DNA from: Escherichia coli 042
GTDB lineage: Bacteria; Pseudomonadota; Gammaproteobacteria; Enterobacterales; Enterobacteriaceae
Length of the DNA stretch: 64,000 bases
Reading direction: 5' to 3' (one strand)
NCBI RefSeq assembly: GCF_000027125.1
Contig: NC_017626.1
Position 1 is the stretch's first letter, and every line of letters begins with the position of its first letter. Shown piece by piece: positions 38,324-38,608 of this stretch. The position numbers were made by a program, and so were the translations under genes. A model generated the notes under the pieces. The model had not been told where the DNA came from. It saw only the letters and a program-made list of their open reading frames with translations, and searched no databases.

Positions 38324-38608
38324 TTAATGGTGATGGTCGTCAATCTGGTGTTCGATAACCATCCCTTCACCTACGCTGGCAAGATGGCGAACATAAGGAT
38401 GCGGGCGGTAAGCCGGAGCTGGCGCAGGAGCCACATAGACGGTTTGCGGCACAGTCGCGACGCTGACCGCTTGTGGAACGCTGACTGAATCAGGAACCAC
38501 AACCACTTTGTATCCACTCGGCACATCGACGGTGACACTTTGCGCCATCGCCACACCAGTAAAGCCCATTAAAAGCGCGCCCAACAGTAGACAATTTTTC
38601 ATAATCAT
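38324..38608 (-). CDS. ybjH: Small secreted protein YbjH (94 aa)
   Basis: Signal peptide MIMKNCLLLGALLMGFTGVAMA; Pro/Val-rich, C-terminal DDHHH. Confidence 0.85.
   Translation of the reverse strand: MIMKNCLLLGALLMGFTGVAMAQSVTVDVPSGYKVVVVPDSVSVPQAVSVATVPQTVYVAPAPAPAYRPHPYVRHLASVGEGMVIEHQIDDHHH

Follow-up and report, generated by a model that had tools for sequence, protein, structure and literature searches.

YbjH of Escherichia coli: a small, predicted periplasmic protein of a few Enterobacteriaceae genera with a conserved acidic and histidine-rich C-terminus

The gene ybjH of Escherichia coli encodes a genuine small protein that is under strong purifying selection and that, by the sequence rules for signal peptides, is exported to the periplasm as a mature chain of about 72 amino acids. 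In the predicted models, this mature protein is made of two short conserved beta-hairpin motifs, which are joined by a Pro/Ala/Val-rich spacer of free length, and the second motif runs into a nearly invariant acidic and histidine-rich tail. It is highly probable that YbjH is a real exported mini-protein. The binding of a metal (or of protons) by the tail is the best guess at its function that the sequence allows.

The ybjH open reading frame is located at positions 38324 to 38608 on the minus strand of the window, which is the whole 64-kb stretch of DNA that was analysed. It consists of 285 nt with an ATG start and encodes 94 amino acids plus a stop codon. The full protein, MIMKNCLLLGALLMGFTGVAMAQSVTVDVPSGYKVVVVPDSVSVPQAVSVATVPQTVYVAPAPAPAYRPHPYVRHLASVGEGMVIEHQIDDHHH, starts with MIMKNC and ends with EHQIDDHHH. 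The RefSeq annotation places ybjH, 'protein YbjH' (WP_000605480.1), at the identical 285 nt. This gene is ybjH of E. coli K-12 (b0843) on the E. coli chromosome, and its DNA is identical to that of K-12-derived genomes; 100% identity to many E. coli genomes, together with the position between ybjI and mdfA, places it in the YbjH orthologous group. A query of 551 bp across ybjH matched 5422 of 5426 complete E. coli genomes, in which it is annotated as 'ybjH: protein YbjH', and the 285-bp gene was present at an identity of at least 99% in 5105 complete E. coli genomes. It is an ordinary gene, already annotated and catalogued. Literature searches with other identifiers and with substrings returned noise only, and in the searched library a single paper deals with ybjH experimentally, at the transcript level only. 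A 2025 paper on Staphylococcus aureus (PMC12518513) uses the name 'YbjH' for an adaptor for Spx proteolysis, which is the role of YjbH; this is an apparent typo and irrelevant to the gene studied here, and the misnaming will contaminate text searches for YbjH.

In E. coli, the gene order is rcdA / ybjJ-ybjI-ybjH >< mdfA-ybjG-deoR, in which rcdA is divergent. The gene ybjI (38694..39512) is on the same minus strand, and ybjH follows 85 bp downstream of it. On the other side, mdfA (plus strand) ends at 38284 and converges with ybjH, with 39 bp between them. The mechanically called mdfA frame (37022-38284, plus strand) has a TTG start and 420 amino acids, and the annotated MdfA has 410 amino acids from the ATG at 37052. 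Just downstream of rcdA, the small RNA RybB is present at full length on the minus strand (41354-41432; Rfam RF00110, 105 bits, E = 1e-21), and no Rfam RNA family overlaps ybjH.

Two alignments were used to describe the protein, A1 with 31 full-length sequences and A2 with 50 mature sequences. The features of the locus are as follows:

38324..38608, minus strand: ybjH coding sequence, from RefSeq and a dN/dS of 0.06-0.10, with the M3 start at ATG 38600-38602
38543..38608, minus strand: predicted signal peptide, residues 1-22 (MIMKNCLLLGALLMGFTGVAMA), with the predicted signal peptidase I cut after A-M-A and before Q23
38486..38542, minus strand: N-terminal mature motif, residues 23-41 (QSVTVDVPSGYKVVVVPDS), predicted beta-hairpin, pN/pS 0.16
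38402..38485, minus strand: V/P/A/Q/T-rich middle, residues 42-69, length-variable, in which indels concentrate (A1, A2), pN/pS 0.32
38327..38401, minus strand: C-terminal module, residues 70-94 (HPYVRHLASVGEGMVIEHQIDDHHH), predicted beta-hairpin and then the acidic/His tail, pN/pS 0.12
38432..38533, no strand: direct-repeat pairs inside ybjH that match natural in-frame deletion breakpoints
38283..38320, both strands: predicted bidirectional terminator hairpin common to ybjH and mdfA, from folding energy and compensatory stem changes
38645..38650, minus strand: candidate -10 hexamer (CATAAT), 48 nt before the M3 start; no -35 is recognisable

The start that is shared across genera is the second Met (M3, ATG 38600-38602), resulting in a precursor of 92 amino acids. 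The MIM start, with its two extra codons (MI), is specific to Escherichia.

Selection on the ybjH product was studied in 36 distinct orthologous sequences, which were aligned by codon. When E. coli was compared with E. albertii, another Escherichia species or Citrobacter, dN/dS was 0.06-0.10 at a dS of 0.6-1.7. In the pooled data, the signal peptide had a pN/pS of 0.52, the N-terminal motif 0.16 and the middle 0.32, and the C-terminal 24 residues had the lowest value in the protein, 0.12. In every segment, pS was about 0.7 (0.72 in the C-terminal module), so that synonymous sites are saturated. The codons of the tail differ synonymously between genera (CAT/CAC, GAC/GAT), indicating that selection acts on the protein and not on the DNA, a terminator or an antisense RNA. 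Six His residues in the last 25 residues have a probability of about 2e-5 at a His frequency of 2.3%, a value for one segment taken alone and uncorrected for a scan of the proteome. The ybjH transcript has been detected by RT-qPCR (PMC5294996) and also by RNA-seq in the PRECISE compendium. It could still be argued that ybjH encodes no functional protein and that the frame is kept only via an overlapping terminator, antisense transcription or recent common ancestry, as YbjH has no family assignment and a low expression, and as in-frame deletion and frameshift alleles are found in some strains. However, this explanation is effectively refuted by a dN/dS far below 1, with synonymous sites saturated in the segment that has the strongest conservation. 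The synonymous codon turnover in the tail also opposes it, the frame, signal peptide and motifs are kept across six unrelated genomic contexts, and disrupted alleles are rare, occurring in clusters of 1-12 sequences compared to 1657 in the largest intact E. coli cluster.

The N-terminus of YbjH has the features of a Sec-type signal peptide that is cleaved by signal peptidase I, according to a rule-based call: a K-containing n-region (MK(N/K)), a hydrophobic core and the cleavage site A-x-A|Q, all of which are kept in all 31 sequences of A1 and in all 36 aligned orthologues. A22 and Q23 are invariant, and the triplet before the cleavage site is AMA, ALA, AFA or similar in nearly all homologues. 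The signal peptide has the highest pN/pS of the segments, which is typical for signal peptides: its sequence drifts while the A-x-A|Q end is constant. As this signal peptide and its cleavage site are conserved, mature YbjH is predicted to be exported to the periplasm. A lipobox (L-[AS]-[GA]-C) was searched for at the cleavage site and is absent, with no Cys at or near it, and the possibility that YbjH is a lipoprotein processed by signal peptidase II was rejected for this reason. The lone Cys6 of E. coli YbjH is not conserved and is replaced by S, Y, R or other residues in orthologues.

Mature E. coli YbjH has 72 amino acids (approximately 7.7 kDa, pI approximately 6.0), including 17 Val, 9 Pro and 6 His, and most homologues have a mature length of 63-76 amino acids. 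The first conserved part is the hairpin motif VTVDVPSGYKVVVVP, which takes the form Q(S/N)VTVDVPSGYKVV(V/I)VP across the alignments and in which T26, V29, P30, G32, Y33 and P39 are invariant in A1. AlphaFold2 predicts two strands flanking the PSG turn for this motif, with a pLDDT of about 80 in the run on the mature protein only. The middle that follows contains a near-invariant PQTVYVAP and an (AP)n run, and is predicted to be coil. In both the precursor and the mature runs, AlphaFold2 placed a single short beta-hairpin in each of the two conserved motifs and only coil elsewhere; these models are of low confidence (pLDDT 66 and 69, pTM 0.23 and 0.26 for the precursor and the mature protein, respectively).

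The variation between natural alleles is found mainly in the middle. Two pairs of direct repeats are present in ybjH, a 12-nt pair at 38432-38443 and 38522-38533, which are 90 bp apart, and an 18-nt tandem pair at 38460-38495, whereas Tandem Repeats Finder detected no DNA tandem array in the gene. The repeats agree exactly with natural in-frame deletions in E. coli. Alleles of 62-64 amino acids carry the joins QSVTVDV|APAP or QSVTVYV|APAP (P0106, P0117, P0118), and the 64-residue form is without the whole N-terminal hairpin motif. An allele of 88 amino acids (P0013) is without PQAVSV, and the copy number of (AP)n varies both within E. coli and within Citrobacter. Less than 80% of ybjH was covered in only 2 of the 5422 matching complete genomes, one of which (KOr019) has the 90-bp deletion. 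Since the deletion alleles and the length variation fall in the middle, this part appears to be a spacer, and the two ends would carry the function.

The C-terminal module is the most conserved part of YbjH. Sixteen of its residues are invariant in both A1 and A2 (R74, H75, A77, S78, V79, E81, G82, M83, I85, E86, H87, Q88, D90, D91, H92 and H93), including four His, two Asp, two Glu and one Met. Conservation extends over a block of 21 residues, RHxASVxEGMxIEHQxDDHH, and not only over a His tag. The ending xDDHH, xDDHHH or xDDHHN is found in approximately 178 of the 184 homologues that carry EGM[VI]IEHQ, and the exceptions are single sequences or truncations. The third terminal His is present in Escherichia and a few other lineages, while the proteins of Citrobacter, Enterobacter, Lelliottia, Buttiauxella and Yokenella end with HH. 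In the initial annotation, made from the sequence alone, the protein had been described as a frame of 94 amino acids at 38324-38608 with a signal peptide, a repetitive V/P-rich middle and a terminal His triplet after two Asp residues. The frame agrees, and the sequence quoted there is identical to that of YbjH, with both the V/P-rich middle and the DDHHH end present. The signal peptide, in a rule-based call, and the repetitive V/P/A-rich character of the middle were borne out as well, the former with its n-region K, hydrophobic core and A-x-A|Q in essentially all homologues. The His tail stands as a conserved DDHH, but not as a triplet, as the third His is lineage-specific and only H92 and H93 are invariant. 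A His tail that varies freely among orthologues, which would have refuted the initial annotation, is thus not what is observed, and the metal binding suggested there is plausible.

Multiple searches were performed for relatives of YbjH among known families. In Pfam, the best hit of E. coli YbjH reached 12.6 bits against a cut-off of 27, and NCBIfam gave no match. Pfam scans of all 31 A1 members showed no consistent family, with DUF2583/YchH, PXPV (PF12778) and DUF3300 not assigned. Two of the 31 members reached E = 2e-4 with PXPV, and E. coli YbjH had no match to it or to DUF3300. One Citrobacter orthologue is labelled DUF3300 in UniRef, but this label was not reproduced, as none of the 31 members matches the family. 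The PXPV and DUF3300 proteins are like YbjH in that a low-complexity stretch rich in Pro, Val and Ala comes after a signal peptide, but the YbjH motifs VTVDVPSGYK and EGMxIEHQxDDHH are absent from both families. In the PDB, a profile search with YbjH gave E values of at least 0.65, and Foldseek, run with the low-confidence model, E values of at least 7. None of the known periplasmic metal-binder families ZinT, CusF, CopC/YobA, PcoE/SilE and RcnB was found in the Pfam scans, the PDB search or Foldseek. On these profile and structure comparisons, the YbjH family appears to belong to nothing described and to be confined to few genera of the Enterobacteriaceae.

This narrow range is also found in the larger sequence collections. 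Relatives of YbjH form 227 clusters at 90% identity in a single-sequence search of 5.8 billion proteins, and 253 when a profile is used. Among 1.84 billion representatives, phmmer found about a dozen YbjH representatives at 50% identity, and the rest of its list consisted of fragments, frameshifted copies and large V/P-rich low-complexity proteins; together with the profile search of the 5.8 billion proteins, it revealed no further genera with distant relatives. A scan of 100,044 species, with one genome each, resulted in 36 ybjH loci, all in Enterobacteriaceae: Escherichia, Citrobacter, Yokenella, Lelliottia, some Enterobacter, Buttiauxella, Phytobacter, a Kosakonia and two other lineages. 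No ybjH was found in Salmonella or Klebsiella in this one-genome-per-species scan. About eight matches were labelled 'plasmid', which could imply carriage on plasmids, and these are non-mobilizable; seven are 0.73-4.9 Mb in size and two are single-cell pieces of about 55 kb. Most likely, these are chromosomal sequences with a wrong label.

At least six different neighbourhoods of ybjH were observed. The full order rcdA / ybjJ-ybjI-ybjH >< mdfA is found only in Escherichia and Citrobacter, and an uncultured enterobacterial genome (MAG UBA3516, locus L033) has ybjJ-ybjH-mdfA without ybjI. In Phytobacter and Kosakonia (L030, L034 and L035, at about 4290-8230), ybjJ is followed by ybjH, again without ybjI, and the place of the convergent mdfA downstream is taken by an RND-type efflux pump with its membrane-fusion protein. 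In Enterobacter and Lelliottia, Yokenella and others, ybjH is alone in unrelated neighbourhoods, and in Buttiauxella it is located between yciA-like and yciB-like genes. As the contexts differ across genera, ybjH has no conserved partner gene. The initial annotation had pointed to the adjacent mdfA efflux gene; the two are indeed adjacent in E. coli, but a functional tie does not follow, since the linkage is found in Escherichia, Citrobacter and UBA3516 and is absent in at least six other genera. The adjacency of ybjH and mdfA is a local accident of Escherichia and Citrobacter. In several Citrobacter loci, 170-470 bp are inserted between the two genes. A secreted protein of 170-175 amino acids adjoins the ybjH homologue in Yokenella regensburgei (L012, 4343-4870, minus strand) and in Buttiauxella sp. 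B2 (L024, 3150-3659, minus strand). The two copies are 47% identical, have no Pfam match and are located in otherwise unrelated surroundings. The E. coli window does not encode this protein, which may be a partner linked to ybjH or be there by coincidence.

Between ybjH and mdfA, a hairpin with a 13-bp stem (38287-38317) is predicted on both strands, with a folding energy of -20.1 kcal/mol (z = -4.5) on the minus strand and -23.6 kcal/mol (z = -3.75) on the plus strand. Compensatory changes in the stem are observed among Escherichia species. U6 follows the stem on the ybjH strand and overlaps the mdfA stop codon, and the U-tract on the mdfA strand is poor. This hairpin is predicted to be a good intrinsic terminator for ybjH and a weak one for mdfA. 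From the asymmetry of the U-tracts, read-through from mdfA antisense to ybjH would be expected, which fits with the presence of mdfA-ybjH in a list of convergent excludons (PMC12288877).

Upstream of ybjH, a pattern scan of the minus strand found no full sigma-70 promoter. In 8 of the 10 genomic-context groups, a hexamer CATAAT, CATACT or similar precedes the start by 33-66 nt; this may belong to a promoter of ybjH itself, weak or dependent on an activator, that moves along with the gene. Sigma-54-like strings (GGCAAC..TGC and TGGCAT..TGCA) were rejected by eye, as their spacing is 1-2 nt too short. In the Citrobacter 5' leaders (L007, L010 and L025), an extra segment with a possible hairpin of 5-7 bp is present about 25-45 nt upstream of the ybjH start (7 bp in L007, cactgga..tccagtg), and the Escherichia leader is without this segment. 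In the 160 nt upstream of ybjH at 17 loci, no Fur, Zur, NikR, MntR, CusR, CueR, RcnR or TorR box was found above the background of the window. The best match to the Fur box upstream of ybjH is 10/19, against a background mean of 10.7. No Fur site of at least 13/19 is present in the intergenic regions upstream of ybjH, ybjI and ybjJ, up to rcdA, and a lone 13/19 match (40430) is inside the ybjJ coding sequence. The best Fur-box-like 19-mer of the window (25711-25729; 15/19, and 14/19 on the other strand) is located in the AT-rich 5' part of an 808-aa open reading frame (25327-27753) and is probably a compositional coincidence.

In PRECISE, the ybjH transcript is low, with log2 TPM values of 1.0-4.7, compared to approximately 6.0 for ybjI and 5.2 for mdfA. 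The lower level of ybjH (approximately 3.8) than of ybjI on the same strand, with no evident terminator-like hairpin in the gap at 38609-38693, suggests that ybjH is reduced about four-fold by some process, such as attenuation, antisense interference from mdfA or an unstable mRNA. A link to iron was suggested by a TorR microarray, in which ybjH (ratio 0.44) covaries with fep, fhu, fec, ent and suf and opposite to ftn (PMC5294996). This pattern is a weak hint of an iron-starvation response of ybjH and of a link to metals. It finds no support in the RNA-seq data or in the search for a Fur box. In PRECISE, b0843 has values of 3.54 and 4.27 in the wild type with dipyridyl; with FeCl2 the values are 3.76 and 3.35, and the fur deletion with Fe has 3.80 and 4.28. 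Neither dipyridyl nor the deletion of fur resulted in a response beyond replicate noise in this dataset, and ybjH was not placed in the Fur regulon or the iron-starvation stimulon, as it shows no Fur box and no derepression. In addition, no response to pH beyond noise was observed in PRECISE (3.93 and 3.55 at pH 5.5 versus 3.70 and 2.94 at pH 7).

The reading that we prefer, with a probability of roughly 0.35, is that the YbjH tail binds a divalent cation in the periplasm. The invariant cluster of H75, E81, M83, E86, H87, D90, D91, H92 and H93, with H94 in Escherichia, would form the site, and mature YbjH would act as a small buffer or chaperone for the metal in the periplasm, and might pass the ion on to, or sense it for, a conserved envelope protein that is encoded elsewhere. 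Similar arrangements are found in the disordered, His/Met-rich PcoE/SilE and in the His-rich segments of ZinT and ZnuA, which are exported, small or flexible, and in which clusters of His, Asp, Glu and Met bind divalent or monovalent periplasmic metals. YbjH resembles these in how it would work only, as there is no sequence or profile similarity, and it differs from them in having one short terminal cluster instead of many repeated motifs and in being located outside a metal-resistance operon, with no metalloregulator site found. In the nickel chaperones UreE, SlyD and HypB, a terminal run of His beside acidic residues serves as a metal reservoir. These proteins are cytoplasmic and carry longer tails appended to large folded domains, whereas YbjH is predicted to be exported, has only HH or HHH and shows no homology to them. 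Several observations weigh against a metal site: YbjH has no similarity to known metal-binding families, no metalloregulator box stands above background in E. coli or in orthologues, and its transcript is flat across dipyridyl, FeCl2 and the fur deletion. Furthermore, only two terminal His residues are conserved, the models are of low confidence, and the invariant residues that are not ligands (A77, S78, V79, G82, I85 and Q88) fit equally well with a folded or protein-contacting module. In this reading, the data do not point specifically to iron.

Nearly as likely as metal binding is that YbjH is a small periplasmic adaptor or regulator, whose hairpins would dock on a conserved envelope protein, such as a sensor, a protease or a transporter, by strand pairing, with the D/E/His tail as a pH or charge switch. 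The many non-ligand residues and the predicted hairpin in the conserved block argue for this possibility, and so does the N-terminal hairpin, which is almost as conserved (pN/pS 0.16). A His cluster beside Asp would titrate in the pH range met by enteric bacteria. As ybjH is solitary, any partner must be a core gene elsewhere. No homology to known periplasmic regulators was found, however, and the expression at pH 5.5 is the same as at pH 7 within noise. A role of YbjH as a structural protein or spacer in the envelope or at the surface is improbable. The alternating Val-rich strands (VTVDV, KVVVV and TVYV), the (AP)n run, which resembles the Pro-rich hinges of OmpA-type proteins, and the weak matches of 2 of the 31 members to the PXPV repeat (PF12778) would suit a beta-rich mini-protein that assembles with itself or tethers envelope layers, with the AP run as a semi-rigid linker. 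Nevertheless, the very low transcript levels are ill-suited to a structural component, alleles without the linker and N-hairpin persist, the linker length is unconstrained, and the most conserved part is the charged His tail and not the strands. A functional coupling of ybjH to the MdfA efflux pump, in which YbjH would be an accessory component in the periplasm or mdfA would be under antisense (excludon) control, is very unlikely. The convergent arrangement 39 bp apart, the common hairpin as a weak terminator for mdfA, the presence of the pair in the convergent excludon list (PMC12288877) and the efflux pump, now of the RND type, that is again the downstream neighbour in Phytobacter are in its favor. 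Against it, ybjH is away from mdfA in Enterobacter, Lelliottia, Buttiauxella, Yokenella, RIT714, Phytobacter and Kosakonia, and the selection at the protein level shows that the product matters and not just transcription across the locus. In addition, MFS pumps of the MdfA kind are not known to depend on a partner in the periplasm.

Returning to the tail as a cation-binding site, a wider and more speculative version is that YbjH founds an undescribed family of periplasmic mini-proteins restricted to the Enterobacteriaceae, in which the EHQxDDHH tail would bind a specific metal or sense pH and the hairpins would deliver the signal or ion to an envelope partner. If this is true, YbjH would be a new small metallochaperone or sensor module. 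The present analysis provides the anatomy of YbjH, with an exported chain of 72 amino acids as predicted, two hairpin motifs, an expendable linker and an invariant end, as well as its narrow taxonomic range, and the tempting links of ybjH to MdfA efflux and to Fur have been removed as unsupported. If the tail does bind metal, YbjH would be a new and very small periplasmic metal-handling protein of enteric bacteria, a useful addition that would leave the thinking in the field unchanged.
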